Of a DNA stretch of 64,000 nt, positions 3,511 through 49,477 are shown piece by piece (within the stretch, counting starts at the first letter, position 1; the number at the start of each line of letters is the position of its first letter). This DNA is from Escherichia coli. Lineage in GTDB: Bacteria; Pseudomonadota; Gammaproteobacteria; Enterobacterales; Enterobacteriaceae. The translations under genes were made by a program, and so were the position numbers. The DNA is taken from the NCBI RefSeq assembly GCF_013122565.1, contig NZ_CP053258.1. The stretch is one strand, 5' to 3'. The notes beneath the pieces were generated by a model. The model was not told the DNA's origin, made no database searches, and saw only the letters and a program-made list of their open reading frames with translations.

Positions 3511-3628
3511 AAGTCCTCCGTTATGCACGGCTTAGCATAAGGAAGTACGTAACGTACGGCATTGTGCAAATGCCCAAAGGATGATGAAGATGTATGGAGT
3601 TGTGGTGAAGTTCACAGATCGTAAGGAG

Positions 3629-3656
3629 AACCCCTTCCCGTTTTCAGGAAGGGGTT
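3629..3656 (-). terminator. Stable hairpin downstream of degP (putative terminator / insulator before the cdaR promoter)
   Basis: aaccccttcc-cgttttca-ggaaggggtt 10-bp stem about 10 nt 3' of the degP stop; no U-run. Confidence 0.4.
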
Positions 3657-3664
3657 GAGGGAGA

Positions 3665-5089
3665 TTACTGCATTAACAGGTAGATGGTGCTGTCGCCGCG
3701 CTGAATGTTCAGTGCCAGCACAGACGGTTTGCTGTCGAGAACTTTACGCAGTTCAGCGATGTTTTTCACTGCCTGCTGGTTCGCGCCAATAATCACATCA
3801 CCTTTCTTCAGGCCGATCTGCGCAGCCGGAGTGCCCGTTTTCACGTTGTTCACTACCACGCCCTGATCTTTGCCTTTGTTGCTCATCTCAGCGCCTTCAA
3901 TGCCGTTGAAGATGGAGCTGGAATCAACCTGATTCTGGCTGCTCTGCTGCAGTTCCAGGTTCACGTTAACCTGCTTACCGTCGCGCAGTAAGCCCAGAGT
4001 CAGTTTGCTACCCACCGGCATAGTACCCACCTGAGCACGCAGCGCGGCAAAGCTGCTGATCGGCTTACCGTTCAGTGAGGTGATCACATCACCCGCTTTA
4101 ATGCCCGCTTTTGCAGCGGAGGAATTAGGCAGAACCTGGCTTACGAAAGCACCGCGCTGGGCGTCAACTTTCATCGCTTTGGCCAGTTCGGAGTTCAGCT
4201 CAGTCCCCATAATACCCAGCTCACCGCGTTTCACCTGGCCGTATTCCACCATCTGCGAGGTCAGGTTTTTCACCATGTTACTCGGGATAGCAAAACCGAT
4301 ACCGATGTTGCCGCCGTCCGGTGCGAGGATCGCGGTGTTGATACCGATCAGTTCGCCGTTCAGGTTAACCAGCGCACCACCGGAGTTACCACGGTTGATC
4401 GCAGCATCGGTCTGGATGAAGTTTTCGTAGTTTTCGGCATTCAGGCCGCTACGCCCCAGCGCAGAGACAATCCCGGAAGTTACCGTCTCGCCCAGACCAA
4501 ATGGGTTACCAATCGCTACGGTGTAATCACCCACGCGCAGTGCATCAGAATCCGCCATCTTAATTGCGGTCAGGTTTTTTGGGTTCTGGATTTGGATCAG
4601 CGCGATATCAGAGCGCGGATCTTTGCCAACCATCTTCGCGTCGAACTTACGACCATCGCTCAGCTGGACTTTAATCACTGTCGCGTTATCAACAACGTGG
4701 TTGTTGGTGACGACATAGCCTTTATCGGCATCAATGATGACGCCGGAACCCAGCGCCATGAATTTTTGTTGCTGGCCGCCACCATTACCGCCCTGGCCCC
4801 CCTGGCAGAACGGAGAGCTCTGGAACGGAGAACCTTCCTGGCAGAACGGTGAATCATCACCGAAGAACTGCTGGAAATTACGCGGCATACGCGGCGTATT
4901 AACGGTTGTGCTACCTTCTACGTTAATGCTGACCACTGAAGGCATCACCTTTTCGAGCATCGGTGCAAGGCTTGGCATCTGCTGGGCTGTCGTTGCTGAA
5001 GATGTCTCAGCCGCCGTTGCAGAGAGCGGAGATAACGCCAAACCTAAACTCAGAGCCAGTGCACTCAGTGCTAATGTGGTTTTTTTCAT
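3665..5089 (-). CDS. degP: Periplasmic serine endoprotease DegP (HtrA)
   Basis: 474-aa ORF with signal peptide, trypsin-like protease core (GNSGGAL) and two PDZ-like C-terminal repeats; recognised as DegP. Confidence 0.96.
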   Translation of the reverse strand: MKKTTLALSALALSLGLALSPLSATAAETSSATTAQQMPSLAPMLEKVMPSVVSINVEGSTTVNTPRMPRNFQQFFGDDSPFCQEGSPFQSSPFCQGGQGGNGGGQQQKFMALGSGVIIDADKGYVVTNNHVVDNATVIKVQLSDGRKFDAKMVGKDPRSDIALIQIQNPKNLTAIKMADSDALRVGDYTVAIGNPFGLGETVTSGIVSALGRSGLNAENYENFIQTDAAINRGNSGGALVNLNGELIGINTAILAPDGGNIGIGFAIPSNMVKNLTSQMVEYGQVKRGELGIMGTELNSELAKAMKVDAQRGAFVSQVLPNSSAAKAGIKAGDVITSLNGKPISSFAALRAQVGTMPVGSKLTLGLLRDGKQVNVNLELQQSSQNQVDSSSIFNGIEGAEMSNKGKDQGVVVNNVKTGTPAAQIGLKKGDVIIGANQQAVKNIAELRKVLDSKPSVLALNIQRGDSTIYLLMQ

Positions 5090-5134
5090 GTATTTCAGTC
5101 TCGATTAACAGATAACGCAAAATTGCTGTGTTCT

Positions 5135-16246: not shown

Positions 16247-18490
16247 TTAGAAACGGAAGGTTGCGGTTGCAACGACCTGACGTTCTGCGCCCCAGAAACA
16301 GCCATAAGTGTTAAAGCAGCTGGCGACGTATTCACGATCGAACAGGTTGTTGACATGCAGCGCCACGTTGGAGCCCGCCATGCCGACTCGCGCCAGATCA
16401 TAACGCACTAACGCATCCACGACCGTATAACTTCCCACTTTAAAGGAGTTAGCCGGATCACCATAGCTGGAGCCAGTATAACGACCACCGGTGCCCAGCG
16501 TCAGACCTGAAAGTGGACCGTCAAAGAAGGTATAGTCAGCCCACAGCGAAGCCATGTGTTTTGGCACCTGTGCAGGCGTATTGCCTTTATAGGTAGTATC
16601 GGTGGTGTATTCCGCATCGGTGTAAGTATAAGAACCGACTACGTTAACACTCGCCGACAGCGCCGCTTTCGCTTCGATTTCTACGCCACGAGCGCGGATC
16701 TCACCACCTTCAACCGAGAAGAAGGAACCCTCAGGGTCCGCCATCAGGTTGTTGGTTTTAGTGAGATTATACACGGCACCAGTAACTACAATCGGACGAT
16801 CTTCCGGTACATATTTCACGCCGACTTCATACTGCTTACCTTTAGAGGGTGCAAAAATATTACCATCCTTCCCAACTTGCGAAGAAGGTTCAAACGATTC
16901 GCTATAGCTGAAGTAAGGTGTTACACCATTATCAAACAGGTAGTTAACACCACCACGCCAGGTAAACTGTTTGTCATCACGTTTATCGGTCGTTCCCGCT
17001 ACGCGGTTAAGAGATTCTTGATCTGCCCAGTCGTAACGCCCGCCCAGGGTGACCAGCACTTTATCCCACTGCGCCTGATCCTGAACATAAACGCCCGTTT
17101 GTTTCTGCTTATTCAGAATGCGGTAAGGACCGGAGTTTGCCGGATCTTTGGCATTGAAGTCGAAATCGGTATTCACCGGATTGTACAGATCGAGCAGCGG
17201 CACAGAGTCGTCGTAACCAAACCAGGCGTTGATGTCATTACGCATACGCATAAAGTCGACACCGGTCAGCAGGGTGTGGTCGATATCGCCAGTGGCAAAC
17301 TTGCTCTGCAACTGGGTATCAACGGAGAAGTTTTGCAGCTTCTCATCATCAACGACGTATTTACGTGCCAGATAATGGCCTTTATCCGCTGGCGCTAATG
17401 CCGCACACTGTTTGCTGTAAGCATTCGCCGGATCGGAGCAGACGCCGTAACCATAAACGCTGTTTTGCGAAGTTTTGTTTTCAGCAAAGCGCAGGTTCTG
17501 ACGCACAGTAAAGGTGTCGTTAAATTCGTGATCGAAGCTGTAGCCCACCATCTTCTCATTACGAGAATAGGTGTTGTTCTTCGCCCCTTCGTTAAAGTCT
17601 GTCGGCAGACGCTTACCGTTCGGCAGCGGCTCAACAGTTCCCTCTTTCGGCAACCAGCCGTAATAACCGGTTTCCGGCTCGTTCTGGAAGTAAGAAAGGA
17701 AGGTGAAATTGGTTTTATCGTCCGGACGCCAGGTAAACGCTGGCGCAATGGCATAACGCTGCTCTTCCGCGCCCTTTTGCTGGGCATTGGCAGAGCGCGC
17801 AAGACCGGTCAGACGATAAGAGTAAACGCCGTCATCATCCAGCGCATCGCTGAAGTCAAAACCGGTCTGGAAGAGGCTGTCAGTCCCGGCCTTAAACTGA
17901 ACTTCTTTCAACGGTTCAGTGGTCGGGCGCTTGCTGACCATATTCAACAGACCGCCAGGACTGCTTTTACCGTAAAGCACGGAAACCGGGCCACGCATAA
18001 TTTCAGCGCGTTCCAGCATATACGGGTCAATGACCGCATCGTTATAGAAGTTGCCCTGCAACTTCAGGCCATTCAGATAGTTATTCTGACTTTGGCCTTC
18101 TGCCGCAAAACCGCGAATGATCAGGTGGTCATAGGTGTTGGATGCGCCACGCGTACCAACAGAGACACCCGGCGTGTAGCTGAGCGCCTCTTTTACTGAC
18201 TTCGGCTGATGTAGCGCCATCTCTTCGGCGGTCACAACAGAAATAGACTGTGGCACTTTTTGAATCGGCGTATCGGTTTTAGTGCCGGTAGCAGACTGTC
18301 GCGCCGCAATAGTTGCAGCCGGCCCCCATGCGCTTTCTTGCGGCGCAGGTGCAGCGGTAACGGTGATAGTGTCTTCTTTCGGTTCAACCGCTGCCTGTGC
18401 ATAAACAGACATGCCGCTAACCGCTGTGGCTACTACAACTGCGATTTTACGCAGTGAGTGTTTTGGCTGAGCAGTTTTGGAACGCGCCAT
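16247..18490 (-). CDS. fhuA: Ferrichrome outer membrane transporter FhuA (TonB-dependent; phage T1/T5/phi80 receptor)
   Basis: 747-aa ORF with signal peptide, TonB box region and C-terminal FRF; recognised as FhuA. Confidence 0.96.
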   Translation of the reverse strand: MARSKTAQPKHSLRKIAVVVATAVSGMSVYAQAAVEPKEDTITVTAAPAPQESAWGPAATIAARQSATGTKTDTPIQKVPQSISVVTAEEMALHQPKSVKEALSYTPGVSVGTRGASNTYDHLIIRGFAAEGQSQNNYLNGLKLQGNFYNDAVIDPYMLERAEIMRGPVSVLYGKSSPGGLLNMVSKRPTTEPLKEVQFKAGTDSLFQTGFDFSDALDDDGVYSYRLTGLARSANAQQKGAEEQRYAIAPAFTWRPDDKTNFTFLSYFQNEPETGYYGWLPKEGTVEPLPNGKRLPTDFNEGAKNNTYSRNEKMVGYSFDHEFNDTFTVRQNLRFAENKTSQNSVYGYGVCSDPANAYSKQCAALAPADKGHYLARKYVVDDEKLQNFSVDTQLQSKFATGDIDHTLLTGVDFMRMRNDINAWFGYDDSVPLLDLYNPVNTDFDFNAKDPANSGPYRILNKQKQTGVYVQDQAQWDKVLVTLGGRYDWADQESLNRVAGTTDKRDDKQFTWRGGVNYLFDNGVTPYFSYSESFEPSSQVGKDGNIFAPSKGKQYEVGVKYVPEDRPIVVTGAVYNLTKTNNLMADPEGSFFSVEGGEIRARGVEIEAKAALSASVNVVGSYTYTDAEYTTDTTYKGNTPAQVPKHMASLWADYTFFDGPLSGLTLGTGGRYTGSSYGDPANSFKVGSYTVVDALVRYDLARVGMAGSNVALHVNNLFDREYVASCFNTYGCFWGAERQVVATATFRF

Positions 18491-28143: not shown

Positions 28144-28619
28144 CATTGGCGTATATTGCCATAGGCAGCAATCTGGCCTCTCCGCTGGAGCAGGTCAATG
28201 CTGCCCTTAAAGCATTAGGCGATATCCCTGAAAGCCGCATTCTTGCCGTTTCTTCGTTTTACCGCACCCCACCGCTGGGGCCGCAAGATCAACCCGATTA
28301 CCTCAACGCCGCCGTGGCGCTTGAAACTTCGCTCGCCCCGGAAGAGTTACTCAACCATACACAGCGCATAGAACTGCAACAGGGTCGTGTTCGTAAAGCT
28401 GAACGCTGGGGACCACGCACGCTGGATCTCGACATCATGCTGTTTGGTAATGAAGTGATAAATACCGAACGCCTGACCGTTCCGCACTACGATATGAAGA
28501 ATCGTGGATTTATGCTATGGCCGCTGTTTGAGATTGCACCGGAGTTGGTGTTTCCTGATGGGGAGACGTTGGCGACAAGGCTCACCAATTTGAACGCCTT
28601 ATGCCCACAACGCTGGTGA
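28140..28619 (+). CDS. folK: 2-amino-4-hydroxy-6-hydroxymethyldihydropteridine pyrophosphokinase (HPPK)
   Basis: 159-aa [30 protein letters not shown]...; start overlaps pcnB stop (ATGA); the last ~17 residues ([19 protein letters not shown]) differ from the K-12 HPPK tail as I remember it. Confidence 0.93.
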
Positions 28620-29023
28620 ACTTGCTATAGCAAAGAGTAAATTCATTCAGCGTTTTCTTTACGTTTTTTTAATATTAATTCTTTCTCAAATCTAAGCATA
28701 ATATTTAATAAAACGCATTTCATAGCTTTCGTGTTTTTGTCTGTGCGCTAACTATTCCGACAATAGATTAGTTAAAAAGCCTTCACCACCTTATTGATAC
28801 ATTAAAAGAATAACAGATGTAAAAATACAGACTTTTAAACGCCCAATTAATAAAAACATCATTCAAACAAATAATTAAAGATTATAAATACACACAATGA
28901 ATATTATTTATTTTCTCGCCCCCTTACATTCACCAGATCTATTTTTATTCCATTTGCATAAGCTTTATAATTTGCTGAGGTGACTCTTCTCACCTCTCTA
29001 TTATTTTTATAAGGACATTAAAT
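28620..29023 (+). promoter_or_regulatory. AT-rich ~400-bp upstream region of the fimbrial operon (likely promoter, candidate H-NS-silenced)
   Basis: Long, strongly A+T-rich non-coding stretch with many A/T tracts directly upstream of the fimbrial major-subunit gene; no ORF. Confidence 0.5.
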
Positions 29024-29596
29024 ATGTTAAAGAAAAGCGCTATTGCTGCGGCATTAGTTATGTTTACCAGTTCGGCCTTCGCGCTGGATGGCGGCCAGCT
29101 GGATTTCGCAGGTTTGGTGAGTGACAACACGTGTATCCTGCACGTCAACGGTGGTGCACAGGATGGACAAATTAATCTTGCAACCGCCACAACGGCTGAA
29201 GTTACAGGTGCTGGCGTAGTCAATGCAGCCAGTGTCGGCGCGAAACCTGAACCGTTCTCTATTACAGTGGATTGCTCAGCAAACACGCCTGCCGCCGCTG
29301 AAGCCAATCTGAATATGAGCTCAGTTTTCTTCAGTAACAGCCAGGGCACCCTGAATAACGATATGTCCGTAAGCCAGGCGGCAAGCGGCGTCGCTATTGC
29401 CGTTCACTATGTACCAAGCGCCGGCACTTTCGAGCAGGTCAAAATCAATGACAGCACCGATATTAAAAACCTCACGTTAACCAACGGTAAAGGGACCTGG
29501 AACTTCCAGGCATCTTACGTTAAGCAGGCAGCGTCGATTCCTGTCGTTGCCGGGTTTGTGAAAACCAACGCGGCTTATACGATCACTTACCCGTAA
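29024..29596 (+). CDS. yadN: Fimbrial major subunit (chaperone-usher pathway), yadN-position
   Basis: 190-aa ORF with signal peptide and C-terminal aromatic donor-strand motif (YTITYP); first gene of a 7-gene operon in the yadN position next to folK; symbol assigned by position and architecture, sequence divergent from K-12. Confidence 0.8.
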   Translation: MLKKSAIAAALVMFTSSAFALDGGQLDFAGLVSDNTCILHVNGGAQDGQINLATATTAEVTGAGVVNAASVGAKPEPFSITVDCSANTPAAAEANLNMSSVFFSNSQGTLNNDMSVSQAASGVAIAVHYVPSAGTFEQVKINDSTDIKNLTLTNGKGTWNFQASYVKQAASIPVVAGFVKTNAAYTITYP

Positions 29597-29658
29597 TTCA
29601 GATACAGACCAGGCAGTCGATGTCGGGCTGCCTGTATGACTTTAATAAGGACATCATT

Positions 29659-30402
29659 ATGACCAGGACGCGTCAGTTACTCCTTGCTTCACTTTTCACC
29701 TGCGCAGGTGCATTAGCCAGCTTTTCCGCCTGTGCCGATATTGTGCTTTCCGGCACGCGTATTATTTACAACGCAAGTCAGAAAGAAGTCTCCCTGCGTA
29801 TGGAAAACAAAGGCAGCCGCCCGCTGCTGGTACAAACGTGGATCGATACCGGGAGTGAAAACGCGGATCCCAGCACCATCACCGTGCCTTTTACCGTCAC
29901 GCCACCGGTCTCTCGTGTGGACGGTAAACGTGGGCAGACGGTGAAAATCGCCTGGAATACCAGCCAAACGTTGCCCGCCGATCGCGAAAGTGTTTTCTGG
30001 TTCAATGCGCTGGAAGTCCCCCCCAAAATGAGCGAGACCGAGGCTCAGGGGAAAAATATCCTGCAACTGGCGTTCCGCACCCGCATCAAGCTGTTTTATC
30101 GCCCGGCTAACCTGGTCGGCAGCGCCCCGGACGCCCCCAAACAACTGACCTGGCATCTGCAATCCTCTGGCGGGAAAGTTGTGCTTCAGGCCACTAACCC
30201 AACGCCATTCCACGTCTCTTTTAGCGGTATTAGCCTGATTTCGGGCGGAAAAAAATACGCCGTCGACGCCACGATGGTCTCCCCGAAAAGCAGCGCTGAC
30301 ATGACGGTGAAAGGTCTGAGCACAGCGCCCGCTGGCGCGACGATTGACTATATCGCCATTAACGACTTCGGCGGCGCCATTGAAGGCAAAGTGAAGCTTT
30401 GA
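29659..30402 (+). CDS. yadV: Periplasmic fimbrial chaperone (PapD-like), yadV/ecpD-position
   Basis: Track ORF 29620..30402; start set at MTRTRQLLLASLF (29659) with AAGGA SD; PapD-like chaperone features. Confidence 0.82.
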   Translation: MTRTRQLLLASLFTCAGALASFSACADIVLSGTRIIYNASQKEVSLRMENKGSRPLLVQTWIDTGSENADPSTITVPFTVTPPVSRVDGKRGQTVKIAWNTSQTLPADRESVFWFNALEVPPKMSETEAQGKNILQLAFRTRIKLFYRPANLVGSAPDAPKQLTWHLQSSGGKVVLQATNPTPFHVSFSGISLISGGKKYAVDATMVSPKSSADMTVKGLSTAPAGATIDYIAINDFGGAIEGKVKL

Positions 30403-30432
30403 CGCGCTGAATAACCACGCAGGGATTGCACA

Positions 30433-33054
30433 ATGACGACGCCTTTCAACGGCACAAAATTTCCCCTCTCTCCACTCGCTTGTCTGGTGGCGTGCAGTCT
30501 GCTGCCCTGCGCGTACAGCGCCATGGCGGCAGAGGAAGCCGTTGAATTTGATAACACCTTCCTGATGGGGGCCGGTGCCAGGAATATCGACGTCAATCGC
30601 TACAGTGATGGCAACCCCGCGTTACCTGGTCGTCACGACGTTAGTGTGTTTATCAACAATAAGCCGACCAGCAATCTGTCCATCGAGTTTATTGAAATAG
30701 CGAATAGCCGTAGCGCCCAACCCTGTATTTCTGCCAGCACCCTGCTCCAGTTGCATATTCGCCTGCCGGATAATCTCGACGATACGGCGATTTTGCAGAA
30801 ACGGGACAGTACCGCGCAGGACTGTCTTAATCTTGAGGTCGCCATTCCCCAGTCCAGCCTCACCTATAACAGTAACGATCAGCGGCTGGACATTAATGTG
30901 CCTCAGCTGTGGTTGCAAAAAACTTACGCTAACTATGTGGATCCTTCCCTGTGGGACGAAGGGATCAACGCAGCCATGTTTTCTTACACGCTGAATGGCT
31001 GGCGCAGTGAGTCGCCCAATCAAACCGCAGAAAGTACCTATGCCGGGCTGATGGGCGGCTTTAATTTATGGGGATGGCACTTCCGGTCGCACGGCAACTA
31101 TTCATGGGACAAAGAGAGTGGCGGCAGTTTCGAGTTCCAGGACAAGTACCTGCAACGTGATATCGTCAAACTGCGGTCGCAGCTGGTTGTCGGTGAAACC
31201 AACACCACGGGGGAGACCTTTGATTCCGTTCGTATTCGCGGGGTTCGTCTCTACAGCGAAAGCCGCATGCTGCCACCGACGCTCGCCTCTTACGCGCCGG
31301 TGATCCGTGGGGTCGCAAACTCCAACGCCAAAGTAACGATTACCCAGAACGGCTACAAGATTTACGAAACGACGGTGCCGCCAGGCCCCTTTGCTATCGA
31401 TGACTTATCGCCAGCCGGATTTGGTGCCGATCTCGAAGTCACGGTCACCGAATCTGACGGCTCACAGCGAACATTCACCCAGGCCTATTCATCGGTGATC
31501 CAGATGATGCGCCCCGGCGTGGGCAAATGGGACATCAGCGCGGGTGAAGTCAAAAAGGATGAGCTAAAGGACAATCCCAACCTGATACAGGGAACGTACT
31601 ACTACGGGTTAAGCAATACGTTTACCGGCTATACCGGCCTGCAAATGACCGATAACGGCTACTGGGCCGGGTTGTTAGGGCTTGGGATGAACACCTCATT
31701 GGGGGCATTTTCCCTGGATGTGACGCAGTCGCACACCGAAATTCCCAACGATAAAACCTATGAGGGCCAGAGCTACCGTATTTCGTGGAACAAATATTTT
31801 GCACCGACCGAAACGTCACTCAACATTGCGGCCTATCGCTACTCGACAAAAAACTATCTCGGCCTGAACGATGCCTTAACGCTGATTAACTCCGCTAACC
31901 ATCCTTATGATGATGGCTACAAGGGAATCGTCTCCTATGGGCGTATGAAAAACCAGTTCAGCGTCAGCCTCAACCAGACGTTAAAAAATGGCGAGCGGGA
32001 TTATGGTTCCTTCTATCTGAATGGGACCTGGACGGACTACTGGGTTACGAATGAATCACAGAGTAGTTTTGCGTTTGGTTACAGCAACGGCTTTGACTGG
32101 GCCAGCTACAGCGTCAGCCTGCAACGAACCTATGATGAAGACAATAACAAAGATGACTCTATCTATCTCAGCTTGACCATCCCGCTGGACAAACTGTTTG
32201 GCCGCGATAGCCGCGAAGGGGGCTTCAGAACGCTCAATACCAGTGTCAACAGCGATATGAAAGGCAGCTCGCAATATAACGCTAACGCCACCGGCTACAG
32301 CCAGGACAACCGCTGGAACTACAGCGTCAACACCTCCTATAACGCAATGAAAGAGACGGAGAGCCTGAAAACCATCAGTGGTTTCACCAGCTATGAGTCC
32401 CCCTGGGGAACCCTTTCCGGTTCCGTCTCCGCCAGTAGCGACCACAGTCGTCAGTATGGCGTGAGTACCGATGGCGGCTTTGTGCTACATCGCCACGGGC
32501 TCACGTTTAGCAACGATAGTTTCACCGACTCAGACACGCTGGCGCTGGTCAATGCCCCCGGCGCGAAAGGGGCGCAAATCAACTTTGGCAGCAGTACCGT
32601 GGACCGATTTGGCTACGGGGTGACCAGTGCGCTTTCTCCGTATCACGAAAACACCGTCGCCCTCAACGTAGACAACCTGGATGAAGATGTAGAGCTAAAA
32701 AGCACCAGCACCGTTGCGATCCCACGCCAGGGTGCCGTTATCTTCAGCCATTTCGACACTGACACCGGGCGTTCCGCCATTCTTAACCTGCTGCGCAGTG
32801 ATAAACAGCCCGTACCGTTTGCTTCCGATGTCACGGACAGCCGTGGGCAGTCCATCGGCACGGTTGGGCAAGGGAGCCAGGCTTTCGTTCGCGGCATTGC
32901 CGACGAAGGGGATCTGGTGGTTTCCTGGTATGAAAAAAATAGCCAGAAACAGTGTCGCATTCACTACCAGATACCGCCCTCTCCCACCATGACGGGCAAA
33001 ACTATCGTATTAAACGCCGTGCCCTGCACCCTGCAATCACAGGAGAGGAAATGA
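30433..33054 (+). CDS. htrE: Fimbrial outer membrane usher (PapC/FimD family), htrE-position
   Basis: 873-aa ORF with signal peptide, conserved usher core (RLYSESRMLPPTLASYAPVIRGVANSNAKVTITQNGYKIYETTVPPGPF) and C-terminal Cys pair. Confidence 0.88.
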   Translation: MTTPFNGTKFPLSPLACLVACSLLPCAYSAMAAEEAVEFDNTFLMGAGARNIDVNRYSDGNPALPGRHDVSVFINNKPTSNLSIEFIEIANSRSAQPCISASTLLQLHIRLPDNLDDTAILQKRDSTAQDCLNLEVAIPQSSLTYNSNDQRLDINVPQLWLQKTYANYVDPSLWDEGINAAMFSYTLNGWRSESPNQTAESTYAGLMGGFNLWGWHFRSHGNYSWDKESGGSFEFQDKYLQRDIVKLRSQLVVGETNTTGETFDSVRIRGVRLYSESRMLPPTLASYAPVIRGVANSNAKVTITQNGYKIYETTVPPGPFAIDDLSPAGFGADLEVTVTESDGSQRTFTQAYSSVIQMMRPGVGKWDISAGEVKKDELKDNPNLIQGTYYYGLSNTFTGYTGLQMTDNGYWAGLLGLGMNTSLGAFSLDVTQSHTEIPNDKTYEGQSYRISWNKYFAPTETSLNIAAYRYSTKNYLGLNDALTLINSANHPYDDGYKGIVSYGRMKNQFSVSLNQTLKNGERDYGSFYLNGTWTDYWVTNESQSSFAFGYSNGFDWASYSVSLQRTYDEDNNKDDSIYLSLTIPLDKLFGRDSREGGFRTLNTSVNSDMKGSSQYNANATGYSQDNRWNYSVNTSYNAMKETESLKTISGFTSYESPWGTLSGSVSASSDHSRQYGVSTDGGFVLHRHGLTFSNDSFTDSDTLALVNAPGAKGAQINFGSSTVDRFGYGVTSALSPYHENTVALNVDNLDEDVELKSTSTVAIPRQGAVIFSHFDTDTGRSAILNLLRSDKQPVPFASDVTDSRGQSIGTVGQGSQAFVRGIADEGDLVVSWYEKNSQKQCRIHYQIPPSPTMTGKTIVLNAVPCTLQSQERK

Positions 33055-33623
33055 GATTCTTTTTACGGTTAATCCTGTTACTGACGACGCTGCTCAATGC
33101 CTCGTGGGCGTTGGCCGTCAATATTTCGGTTAACTTTACCGCGACGATCAAAGAGACCACCTGCGCCATGACGGTGAGCGCACTCAATGGCGCGAATCTT
33201 AGCGGTGACTCGGCATCAGAGAACTACTTTCTGGATTTACCCACAATGGGGGTTTCCGATATCACCAATAAAACGTCCAAAACCGAAGCCAGCTTTAAGC
33301 TATTACCGATTAACTGTAATAACTACATCTCCAGCATGTCGATGACCATTGGCGGTAAACACAGCGGTTATACCGACACGTTGCTGGTGAATGATTCCTC
33401 GGTTACAGGAGGAGCCAGTTACATTGGCGTGGGCTTTAAACGGCTTAATGACGATGACAGCCTGCGGTTTAAGGTGGATGGAACGACGTCAATTAACTGG
33501 ACACGCAATGACATTGCCAATGGATTTGATATTACTGGAATAGTTCGCCGGACAACGAGTTCTTACAACATGATACCCGGTCTGGTTCAGACAAAAGCGA
33601 TATTCGTTTTTACTTATAACTAA
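33051..33623 (+). CDS. yadM: Fimbrial minor subunit, yadM-position
   Basis: Start MRFFLRLILLLTTLL at ATG 33051 overlapping the usher stop (ATGA), AGGAGAGG SD; 190 aa; C-terminal FVFTYN. Confidence 0.78.
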   Translation: MRFFLRLILLLTTLLNASWALAVNISVNFTATIKETTCAMTVSALNGANLSGDSASENYFLDLPTMGVSDITNKTSKTEASFKLLPINCNNYISSMSMTIGGKHSGYTDTLLVNDSSVTGGASYIGVGFKRLNDDDSLRFKVDGTTSINWTRNDIANGFDITGIVRRTTSSYNMIPGLVQTKAIFVFTYN

Positions 33624-33635
33624 CAGGGATGGTGT

Positions 33636-34232
33636 ATGAATTATCAACGCATAATTGTAGCGCTATTGTTAATCATCGGAATAAATACGCAATGCCTGGC
33701 TGGCTCCAGTTCGTTGAACGTGACGGTGAGGACAACCGTTACCGCCAGTACCTGCACAGCAGAGCTTCACAATGCGCAGGACCTGCAAGCGACAACAATT
33801 GATATTGGTGATGTCTATCTGAACGAACTTGCAAATAAGACTAAATATCAGAATTTCAGCCTGGTGTTTTCAAATTGTGAAGGCTTAGCCAAAGATCAGG
33901 CGACCGTCACACTTTCTCCGCAAACAGGCTGCGATGGTGCATCCAGTACGGGTGGCGGATTTCGCAACGCACTGGCCTCCAGCGACAATGATGCGGCAAC
34001 CGGCGTATCGATTGAAGTATGGACGACCAATCAGCCGGAAGGTCAGGGAAGTGTGCAGCTAAACTGCAAGACAAAACCGACCAGTATTGTCGATCTGACG
34101 GGCGCGTCAGGTGCGAACGTTGTCCACTGGTGGTTAAGCTCCAGAATTGTCGTCGCCGCGGATAACACTATCGCCGATGTACGTGCAGGGCAGTTCTCCA
34201 CCAACGCTGTCTTTTCAGTAACCTATGAGTAA
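33636..34232 (+). CDS. yadL: Fimbrial minor subunit, yadL-position
   Basis: 198-aa ORF with signal peptide; C-terminal FSVTYE donor-strand-like motif. Confidence 0.78.
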   Translation: MNYQRIIVALLLIIGINTQCLAGSSSLNVTVRTTVTASTCTAELHNAQDLQATTIDIGDVYLNELANKTKYQNFSLVFSNCEGLAKDQATVTLSPQTGCDGASSTGGGFRNALASSDNDAATGVSIEVWTTNQPEGQGSVQLNCKTKPTSIVDLTGASGANVVHWWLSSRIVVAADNTIADVRAGQFSTNAVFSVTYE

Positions 34233-34238
34233 ACGACG

Positions 34239-34811
34239 ATGAAATCACGTTTTCGACTGTTCGTTTCCGGCTTATGGTTTATTACAGCGGCCTGTATTGC
34301 CAACACCAATATTAATATGACCGCCAACGTTGTCAGCACCAGTTGCAAAGTCACCCTCGACAATAGCGGCAGCATTGATTTAGGCACGGTTAATTACGAC
34401 TATCTGAACACGAATACTGCCGTGGATCGCGTTTATACCGGTGGTCAGGCGTTCTACATCACCGTCAGTGACTGCGCGCAGATGGCGGGTAAAAATCCTT
34501 CCCGTCTTACGGTGAGTTTTACGCCCGTCGGGGGTACCCTCGGCGCAACTAATCAACAGGTTTTTGCCAATCAGGCAGCCGATGGCGCTAAAAACGTCGG
34601 CATCGTAATTTTATCCACCCAGGATGCGCAAAGTATTTTCAATGTGCTGGATACCCACGGCCAATCGCAAAGTATTTACCCCGTGAGCGCGGATCAGCTA
34701 GCCAATGCCACCTACCATTTTTATGCACGGATGCAGAAGATCGACCTGGCGCAAGCCGCCACCAGCGGTGTAGTGCGGGCCAGTGTGTTTGTCGGTGTTT
34801 ATTATGAATAA
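34239..34811 (+). CDS. yadK: Fimbrial minor subunit, yadK-position
   Basis: 190-aa ORF with signal peptide; C-terminal VGVYYE. Confidence 0.78.
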   Translation: MKSRFRLFVSGLWFITAACIANTNINMTANVVSTSCKVTLDNSGSIDLGTVNYDYLNTNTAVDRVYTGGQAFYITVSDCAQMAGKNPSRLTVSFTPVGGTLGATNQQVFANQAADGAKNVGIVILSTQDAQSIFNVLDTHGQSQSIYPVSADQLANATYHFYARMQKIDLAQAATSGVVRASVFVGVYYE

Positions 34812-34837
34812 CGTTTTACGTTCTCAAGGATGATGAA

Positions 34838-47413: not shown

Positions 47414-48964
47414 TTATACCGTAAACCCTAACATCATCCCCGTATCTTCATGCTCCAGCAGATGGCAGTGCGCCATATAAGCATGTTCTTTCGGTGCGTC
47501 GTGATTAAACTTCACCAGCACTTCACTGACATTGCCTTCTACCTTAACGGTATCTTTCCAGCCCGCGCGATGAGCCGCTGGCGGTTTGCCATTTTCTGAC
47601 AAGATACGGAACTGCGTGCCGTGAATATGGAACGGATGCAGCATCATGTCGCCCACGCCAGAGATAACCCAACGTTCGTACTGCCCTTTCGCCGCCGCAA
47701 ACATCGGCTTATTCATATCAAACGCCTGACCGTTGATTTTATTGGCATGGTGGAAATCGAACTTCCCGCCGTGGTTCATATGATTCATATTGCCGTGCCC
47801 CATATGGCCCATCATCTGGCTGTGATCCATTCCGGCCATCGCCTGATCGCCATATTTCTCCATTAGCATCTGCATCCCCATCATATCGAGCATCGGGTCC
47901 ATAGAAAGTTGCAGCTTGCGTACCGTCAGCCCTTCCAGCGAAGGTAACGCAGGCAGGCTACTTAATGTGTCTGGCAAAGCACCGGAGGCACTAATAGCAA
48001 TCGGCTGAATCCGCATTACCGGATGCGGCTTGTCAAACGGTGCAATCGCCATCCCCATCTGGCTGACCGGCAGCGTCACCAGGTCAAATGGTTTGTTGTC
48101 GTTAACCTCCACCAGCACTTCAAAACGCTCGCCCATCAGCACCGGCAGTTCGCTCACCTTCACCGGTTCAGGTAGCAGACCACCGTCGCTGGCAATCACA
48201 TAAAGCGGGCGATTGTCGCTGGTGGCGAAATTGAGCGAGCGGGCATTACAGCCATTGAGCAAACGCAGGCGCAGCCAACCACGCGGGGCAGCGTGTTGCG
48301 GGTAGATTGCACCGTTGGTCAGCAACGTATCGCCAAACCAGCCCACGGCGGCGGTCATCACATCCAGTTGATAATCAATCTGCCCGTCGGCGCTAAATTT
48401 CTTATCCTGAACGATCACCGGAACATCATCGATACCCCACTGTTTTGGCAGCATTAATTTCAGGATCTCGTCATCTTCAATTACCACCAGCCCAGCCAGC
48501 CCCATCGCCACCTGTCGCCCGGTCTTGCCATGTTGATGTGGATGGAACCAGCAGGTAGCGGCAGGTTGATCAACGTTCAACGTCACCGAGCGCTTGCCAC
48601 CTGGCGGAATAATTCCCTGTGGGCCGCCGTCGACTTCACCCGGTACTTCCAGCCCGTGCCAGTGCAACGTCGTCTCTTCCGTCAGTTGGTTATAGATATC
48701 AACCGTTACCGCTTTGCCGCGCTGTAATTTCACCGCCGGCCCCAGCAGATTGCCGTTATAGCCCCAGGTAGTTGCAGTTTTCTCGCCAAAGGTAGACTGA
48801 CCTGCGCCAATAGTTAACTGAATGCGATTACGGGCATCGGTCGTGAGCAAATCAGGGATCGGTAACGTTGGGCGTTCCGCCGCAAAGACTGCACGGCTCC
48901 ACAGTGGCAAGGCTGAAGCCACACCCAGTGCGACGGAATATTTCAAGAAATCACGACGTTGCAT
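47414..48964 (-). CDS. cueO: Multicopper oxidase CueO (periplasmic cuprous oxidase)
   Basis: Track ORF to 49003; recognised start [22 protein letters not shown] (Tat RR motif) at 48964; Met-rich insert and copper-ligand motifs ([17 protein letters not shown]). Confidence 0.95.
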
Positions 48965-49017
48965 AGTTATTTCCTTATTTTTAAGCAGGCGAAACAAAAT
49001 CAAACGTTGAGCATAGT

Positions 49018-49036
49018 CCTTCCCCTTACGGGAAGG
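49018..49036. promoter_or_regulatory. Candidate CueR (MerR-family) operator in the cueO/yacC divergent region
   Basis: Perfect dyad CCTTCC-N7-GGAAGG located about 55 nt upstream of the cueO start. Confidence 0.6.
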
Positions 49037-49129
49037 TCAAGCCGCAGACACAATTTAATCGACAATAATGGTCGTCGCCTCGCTCGCAGTGTGCTAACGT
49101 TTATCTTCTTTAAGCCCCTGGTAGAAGCA

Positions 49130-49477
49130 ATGAAGACGTTTTTCAGAACAGTGTTATTCGGCAGCCTGATGGCCGTTTGCGCAAACAGTTACGCGCTCAG
49201 CGAGTCTGAAGCCGAAGATATGGCCGATTTAACGGCAGTTTTTGTCTTTCTGAAGAACGATTGTGGTTACCAGAACTTACCTAACGGGCAAATTCGTCGC
49301 GCACTGGTCTTTTTCGCCCAGCAAAACCAGTGGGATCTCAGTAACTACGACACCTTCGACATGAAAGCCCTCGGTGAAGACAGCTACCGCGATCTCAGCG
49401 GCATTGGCATTCCCGTCGCTAAAAAATGCAAAGCCCTGGCCCGCGATTCCTTAAGCCTGCTTGCCTACGTCAAATAA
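49130..49477 (+). CDS. yacC: Uncharacterized periplasmic protein YacC
   Basis: Track ORF 48959..49477; recognised start MKTFFRTVLFGSLMAVCANSYA at ATG 49130 (115 aa, signal peptide). Confidence 0.88.
   Translation: MKTFFRTVLFGSLMAVCANSYALSESEAEDMADLTAVFVFLKNDCGYQNLPNGQIRRALVFFAQQNQWDLSNYDTFDMKALGEDSYRDLSGIGIPVAKKCKALARDSLSLLAYVK

Follow-up and report, generated by a model that had tools for sequence, protein, structure and literature searches.

A perfect CCTTCC-N7-GGAAGG dyad in the cueO promoter of Escherichia coli: promoter geometry and conservation of a known CueR site

CueR operators and related systems

CueR is a Cu(I)-sensing regulator of the MerR family, and its site in the cueO promoter of E. 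coli has already been published (2000-2006); the first demonstration of this regulation was reportedly that of Outten et al. 2000 (J Biol Chem 275:31024). CueR recognises the core sequence CCTTCC-N7-GGAAGG and acts on copA and cueO (PMC8169799, citing Yamamoto & Ishihama 2005); the promoters of these genes, PcopA and PcueO, are described as its sole two targets in E. coli (PMC9396075). A spacer of 19 bp is stated as a requirement (PMC1526738, PMC8169799), and a shift of the dyad by 1 bp in PcopA weakened or abolished activation (PMC8169799), so that the register of the dyad matters. The mechanism by which distortion of the DNA turns the repressor into an activator has been reviewed (PMC9909328). 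As regards cueO itself, PcueO-lacZ reporters were activated on metal supplementation and a deletion of PcueO has been described (PMC9396075), PcueO has also been deleted as a CueR operator site (PMC4507017), and the locus, called the 'yacC-yacK divergon', has been presented as carrying a CueR site together with a promoter whose spacer is 19 nt long (PMC1526738). In a table of 2006 the entry for E. coli yacK, as cueO was formerly called, gives ACCTTCCC-(5)-gGGAAGGa as the site, at -74, and TTGACc-(19)-TATgcT as the promoter, at -77 (PMC1526738 Additional file 1).

Other described systems stand at different distances from this promoter. PcopA of E. coli, the CueR-dependent promoter of the crystal and cryo-EM structures (PMC8169799), is compared with PcueO below. 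The promoters of Salmonella cueO (cuiD) and Yersinia yacK are orthologous, with TTGACc-(19)-TAagcT and a CueR-like dyad (PMC1526738 supplement), in agreement with our own survey, but they differ from the E. coli promoter in a degenerate right arm (gGcAgGGT, aGGAgGGT). The MerR operator merO of Tn21/Tn501 and the ZntR-zntA system likewise have a dyad in an over-long spacer and are activated by DNA distortion (PMC9909328, PMC1526738); however, their half-sites are different from those of cueO (TCCGTAC-(4)-GTACGGA for MerR, CTGGAGTCGACTCCAG for ZntR), the spacer of the ZntR promoter is 20 nt long as against 19 nt in cueO, and the effector metals of MerR and ZntR also differ.

Geometry of the cueO promoter

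We searched a window of 64 kb (the whole stretch of E. coli chromosomal DNA analysed here, 64,000 nt) by sequence reading and pattern search. An exact match to CCTTCC-N7-GGAAGG occurs once, as CCTTCCCCTTACGGGAAGG at 49018..49036, which bears out the perfect dyad that a preliminary description of the window had claimed for this position. The same pattern appeared in 0 of 100 dinucleotide-preserving shuffles of the window, and by arithmetic its chance expectation is 64000 x 4^-12, or about 0.004 per window. The arms of the dyad reach 7 bp (CCTTCCC/GGGAAGG) around a centre of 5 nt. The features of the locus are as follows, each with its basis in brackets.

49018..49036, no strand: predicted CueR operator core (published CueR core, PMC8169799, and published yacK site, PMC1526738 supplement)
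49035..49040, minus strand: -35 hexamer TTGACC of the cueO promoter (scan with spacers of 15-21 nt)
49016..49034, minus strand: spacer of 19 nt between the -35 and -10 hexamers (scan with spacers of 15-21 nt)
49010..49015, minus strand: -10 hexamer TATGCT of the cueO promoter (scan and published table, PMC1526738)
49001..49005, minus strand: predicted cueO transcription start (from the usual sigma-70 geometry, 5-9 nt downstream of the -10 hexamer)
48965..49000, minus strand: 5' leader of cueO (direct sequence reading)
47414..48964, minus strand: cueO, multicopper oxidase with the Tat signal MQRRDFLK (NCBIfam and RefSeq annotation)
49130..49477, plus strand: yacC, YacC family pilotin-like protein, the divergent neighbour (NCBIfam and RefSeq annotation)

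The identity of both genes is well supported, with the NCBIfam equivalogs for CueO (NF008205; cut-off 525 bits) and YacC (cut-off 80 bits) scoring 983.5 and 196.8 bits respectively. The downstream gene, cueO, belongs to copper homeostasis. The two genes are transcribed divergently, with their start codons 165 nt apart, and the dyad lies between them, in the divergent region to which the preliminary description had assigned it. A Shine-Dalgarno sequence, TAAGGAA, is found at 48977..48971 on the minus strand, 7 nt ahead of the cueO ATG; the open reading frame of 529 amino acids that had been listed from a TTG at 49003 is merely a mechanical upstream extension of cueO.

Our own promoter scan covered 48940..49140 on both strands and allowed spacers of 15-21 nt. 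On the cueO strand the promoter reads ...GCGGC TTGACC TTCCCGTAAGGGGAAGGAC TATGCT CAACG..., and the combination of TTGACC, 19 nt and TATGCT matches 9 of the 12 consensus positions. The last two bases of TTGACC are at the same time the first two bases of the dyad, which fills the promoter spacer; judged by these hexamers, on the cueO strand and 19 nt apart, the expected position of the dyad within the spacer of the promoter is confirmed. The spacer exceeds the optimum by 2 nt, and an over-long spacer of this kind is typical of MerR-type promoters. A generic promoter scan reported no promoter at the dyad because it allowed only spacers of 16-18 nt, a result that is expected of a MerR-type promoter.

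The published E. coli yacK/cueO box and the dyad described here are the same object, since the sequence and the distances in the window agree with those of the table; there is no difference of substance, the strain of the window not being K-12. For the comparison with the second target of CueR we used a 41-nt query taken to be the E. coli PcopA sequence. It matched 5417 E. coli genomes, with 5357 records identical, and the match sits 30 nt upstream of the annotated copA. From the -35 to the -10 hexamer PcueO and PcopA align as CTTGACCTTCCC-...-GGAAGG-NN-TA..CT without gaps, and the dyad is therefore in identical register in the two promoters. They share the core CCTTCC-N7-GGAAGG, the -35 hexamer TTGACC overlapping the dyad, and the 19-nt spacer. 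On the other hand, the central 7 nt are CCTTGCT in PcopA and CGTAAGG in PcueO, the -10 hexamer is TAACCT in PcopA and TATGCT in PcueO, the dyad of copA is extended by an A...T pair (ACCTTCC...GGAAGGT) whereas that of E. coli cueO ends in GGAAGGA, and the leader of cueO exceeds that of copA by about 12 nt.

Conservation of the promoter module

We surveyed 80 cueO loci, one per species, with a protein identity of 74-98%, from Escherichia, Citrobacter, Enterobacter, Salmonella, Klebsiella, Raoultella, Kosakonia, Kluyvera and other genera. In 79 of the 80 species a module of the form CTTGACCTTCC...GG[A/G]AGG..TA[T/A]GCT is located 60-72 nt upstream of the cueO ATG. The 64 distinct orthologous segments of 42 nt could be aligned without any gap, and the 19-nt spacer and the register of the dyad are thus invariant. 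TTGAC was found in all 64 distinct promoters, and the -10 hexamer is either TATGCT (36) or TAAGCT (34+2). The mean information content amounts to 1.95 bits for the -35 hexamer, 1.46 bits for the spacer and 1.72 bits for the -10 hexamer, compared with 0.50 bits upstream and 0.71 bits downstream, so the flanks are poorly conserved relative to the module. yacC is the divergent neighbour of cueO in 78 of the 80 loci.

The perfect dyad itself is the exception. Both arms of 6 bp are complete in only 12 of the 80 loci, all belonging to Escherichia, some Citrobacter or some Klebsiella/Raoultella; the right arm is mostly GGGAGG, and a perfect dyad is accordingly dispensable. Within the alignment, columns C10, T13 and C15 of the left arm and G23, A25, G27 and G28 of the right arm are invariant and C11 is nearly so, while columns 12/26 and 14/24 (window 49034/49020 and 49032/49022) vary. 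The conserved positions of the half-sites therefore alternate (CC.T.C / G.A.GG) and the positions between them drift. In 47 of the 64 sequences column 12 is T and column 26 is G, which breaks the perfect dyad at this position in duplex DNA. Some pairs of arms (CCTTAC/GTAGGG, CCTTGC/GCAGGG) seemed to indicate a symmetric covariation of the half-sites, but this was rejected, as it did not rise above shuffles: for the 64 distinct orthologues the covariation score was reached by 170 of 500 shuffles, the paired cells by 110 of 500, and the number of cells changed on both sides of the dyad by 137 of 500. The symmetry of the dyad is kept by invariance and not by covariation, as is expected of a protein-binding site and not of a base-paired stem.

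Within E. coli, a 301-nt query that includes the dyad has matches in 5424 of the 5426 complete genomes (5417 of them over at least 80% of the query), and the features beneath these matches are annotated as cueO and yacC; in a record identical over the 301 nt the gene order is gcd, cueO (minus strand), yacC (plus strand), speE, speD, yacL and acnB. Of 5422 E. coli records, 5259 have an identical 45-nt promoter core, whereas the surrounding 301 nt are at least 99% identical in only 880 records. The gene for the regulator, cueR, lies outside this window and is annotated in an E. coli chromosome beside glsA-ybaT and copA.

The single species without the module is Intestinirhabdus alba (L075:1-1500), which has no box within 300 nt upstream of cueO; a search of its whole locus with up to 2 mismatches allowed also found no CueR box. 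The upstream region of this locus is rearranged, with yacC absent and a methyl-accepting-chemotaxis-like open reading frame and G+C-rich sequence in its place, and it is the sole cueO orthologue of the 80 that lacks both the CueR box and an upstream yacC. The arrangement of the locus suggests that cueO in I. alba may have lost its control by CueR.

The dyad as an operator, alternative readings and other features of the window

The sequence, the promoter geometry, the register shared with PcopA and the evolutionary conservation come from this analysis; CueR binding, copper induction and the DNA-distortion mechanism (solved on PcopA) are taken from the literature. Together they make it very probable that CueR has its operator in this dyad, within the sigma-70 promoter that drives cueO, and no observation speaks against it. 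The MerR-family architecture of a CueR operator, as proposed in the preliminary description, is upheld by the 19-nt spacer, the PcopA register, the conservation in 79 of the 80 loci, and the agreement with the core known from the literature and with the published yacK site. According to the mechanism, the -35 hexamer TTGACC and the -10 hexamer TATGCT would be 2 nt too far apart at a distance of 19 nt, and RNA polymerase alone would for that reason use the cueO promoter poorly. A dimer of CueR would bind the dyad on the face of the DNA opposite the polymerase; in its metal-free form it would keep the DNA in an inactive shape, with weak repression as the consequence, and once it has bound Cu(I), Ag(I) or Au(I), it would kink and under-twist the spacer. 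The distorted spacer would set the hexamers at the distance, and in the phase, that they have in a 17-nt promoter and would switch cueO on, and the CueO product would then oxidise periplasmic Cu(I).

As a discovery this has little weight, because it concerns a well-documented site of the E. coli copper regulon that has since been used in reporter and structural work. Its value is that of a positive control: a MerR-type operator, its gene context and the appropriate test can be recognised from raw sequence, and all points of the preliminary description that sequence can check were confirmed. The survey adds small quantities to what is known, namely the invariant register and 19-nt spacer, the alternation of fixed positions, and the finding that the perfect dyad is the exception.

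A CueR site in a divergent intergenic region might also, or instead, control the other gene, in this case yacC, and a palindromic dyad could act in either direction. The dyad is indeed located within the 165-nt region shared by cueO and yacC, 93 nt upstream of the yacC ATG, the divergence is conserved in 78 of 80 species, and the locus has even been named for both genes, as the 'yacC-yacK divergon' (PMC1526738). However, MerR-type activation needs hexamers on both sides of the dyad, and the bases that flank it on the plus strand (GCATAG and TCAAGC) are not promoter-like; the scan of 48940..49140 with spacers of 15-21 nt gave no promoter candidate on the plus strand, and none of the papers searched links yacC to copper beyond the name of the locus. 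We therefore regard control of yacC by this site as very unlikely. Only a little less doubtful is a combined proposal, in which the bent operator with CueR bound would also modulate the divergent yacC promoter and the perfect dyad would represent a lineage-specific tuning of CueR occupancy; the latter part was suggested by the degenerate right arm GGGAGG that most Enterobacteriaceae carry. If the former part were true, the pilotin-like YacC would be the product of a copper-responsive gene.

The inverted repeat could alternatively be read as a nucleic-acid hairpin (a terminator, an RNA stem-loop or a cruciform) and not as a protein site. Folding of the single strand does give a hairpin whose stem is 7 bp and whose loop is 5 nt (-6.9 to -7.4 kcal/mol; compared with shuffles, z = -2.0 to -2.5), but such folding is common to any palindrome. 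The stem is not followed by a T-run, and a scan of 48850..49250 detected no terminator-like site; moreover, the dyad lies upstream of both cueO and yacC, which leaves no incoming transcript to terminate, and its position in the promoter spacer, upstream of the expected start, places it outside the cueO mRNA. Across the 64 distinct orthologues pairing showed no compensatory change above shuffles, the perfect dyad is broken at columns 12/26 (T, G) in 47 of them, and the matches in the window that reach the Rfam gathering threshold are all elsewhere than the dyad. A hairpin is for these reasons highly improbable. Equally improbable is the binding of a different MerR-family regulator with a CueR-like box, of the GolS or HmrR type; GolS is not known outside Salmonella, which counts against the former. 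The boxes of the CueR, HmrR and GolS types are nearly identical and similar boxes occur at Salmonella paralogue loci (PMC1526738), but papers on E. coli report that CueR regulates cueO and that PcopA and PcueO are its only two targets (PMC8169799, PMC9396075). Finally, that the dyad is a chance palindrome without function has nothing in its favour beyond the fact that short palindromes do occur, and it is practically ruled out by the chance expectation and the shuffles given above, by the exact CueR/PcopA register, and by the conservation in 79 of 80 species despite diverging flanks.

Apart from the operator, the window contains six matches to the dyad pattern with 2 mismatches (7 matches in all with the exact one, against 1.85 expected). 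Five of them are at 16707, 16867, 19266, 30557 and 47931; annotated genes account for four near-matches (fhuA for two, mrcB and cueO for one each), and that at 30557 falls in a fimbrial region that could not be mapped to an annotated record. No promoter hexamers were found beside any of the six, and in the absence of promoter flanks they were rejected as CueR sites; the surplus of such matches probably reflects coding composition. One near-match belongs to a perfect inverted repeat with a stem of 10 bp, aaccCCTTCC-cgttttca-GGAAGGggtt, at 3624..3657 between the stop codon of degP and the start codon of cdaR; it has neither TTGAC nor -10 flanks nor a T-run, and may be a 3' stem-loop of degP.

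The window also has full-length Rfam matches to two RNAs. The HtrA 5' UTR RNA thermometer, at 5084..5129 on the minus strand, scores 77 bits (gathering score 52) and overlaps the start codon of degP/htrA at about 5088. The tp2 sRNA, at 62916..63029 on the plus strand, scores 103 bits; it is situated between aceE and pdhR and runs antisense to the pdhR-aceEF-lpdA operon. A segment of about 7.6 kb adjoining folK (about 28565..36175) gave no megablast alignment to the reference strain, which carries a chaperone-usher fimbrial operon at this folK-adjacent place, while elsewhere the window shares 97-99% identity with this strain; to judge from these alignments, the segment looks like a strain-variable fimbrial allele. 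Inside aceF, at 59352..60214, internal tandem repeats about 300 nt apart show about 80% identity; they represent the lipoyl domains, which are repeated in the E2 subunit.
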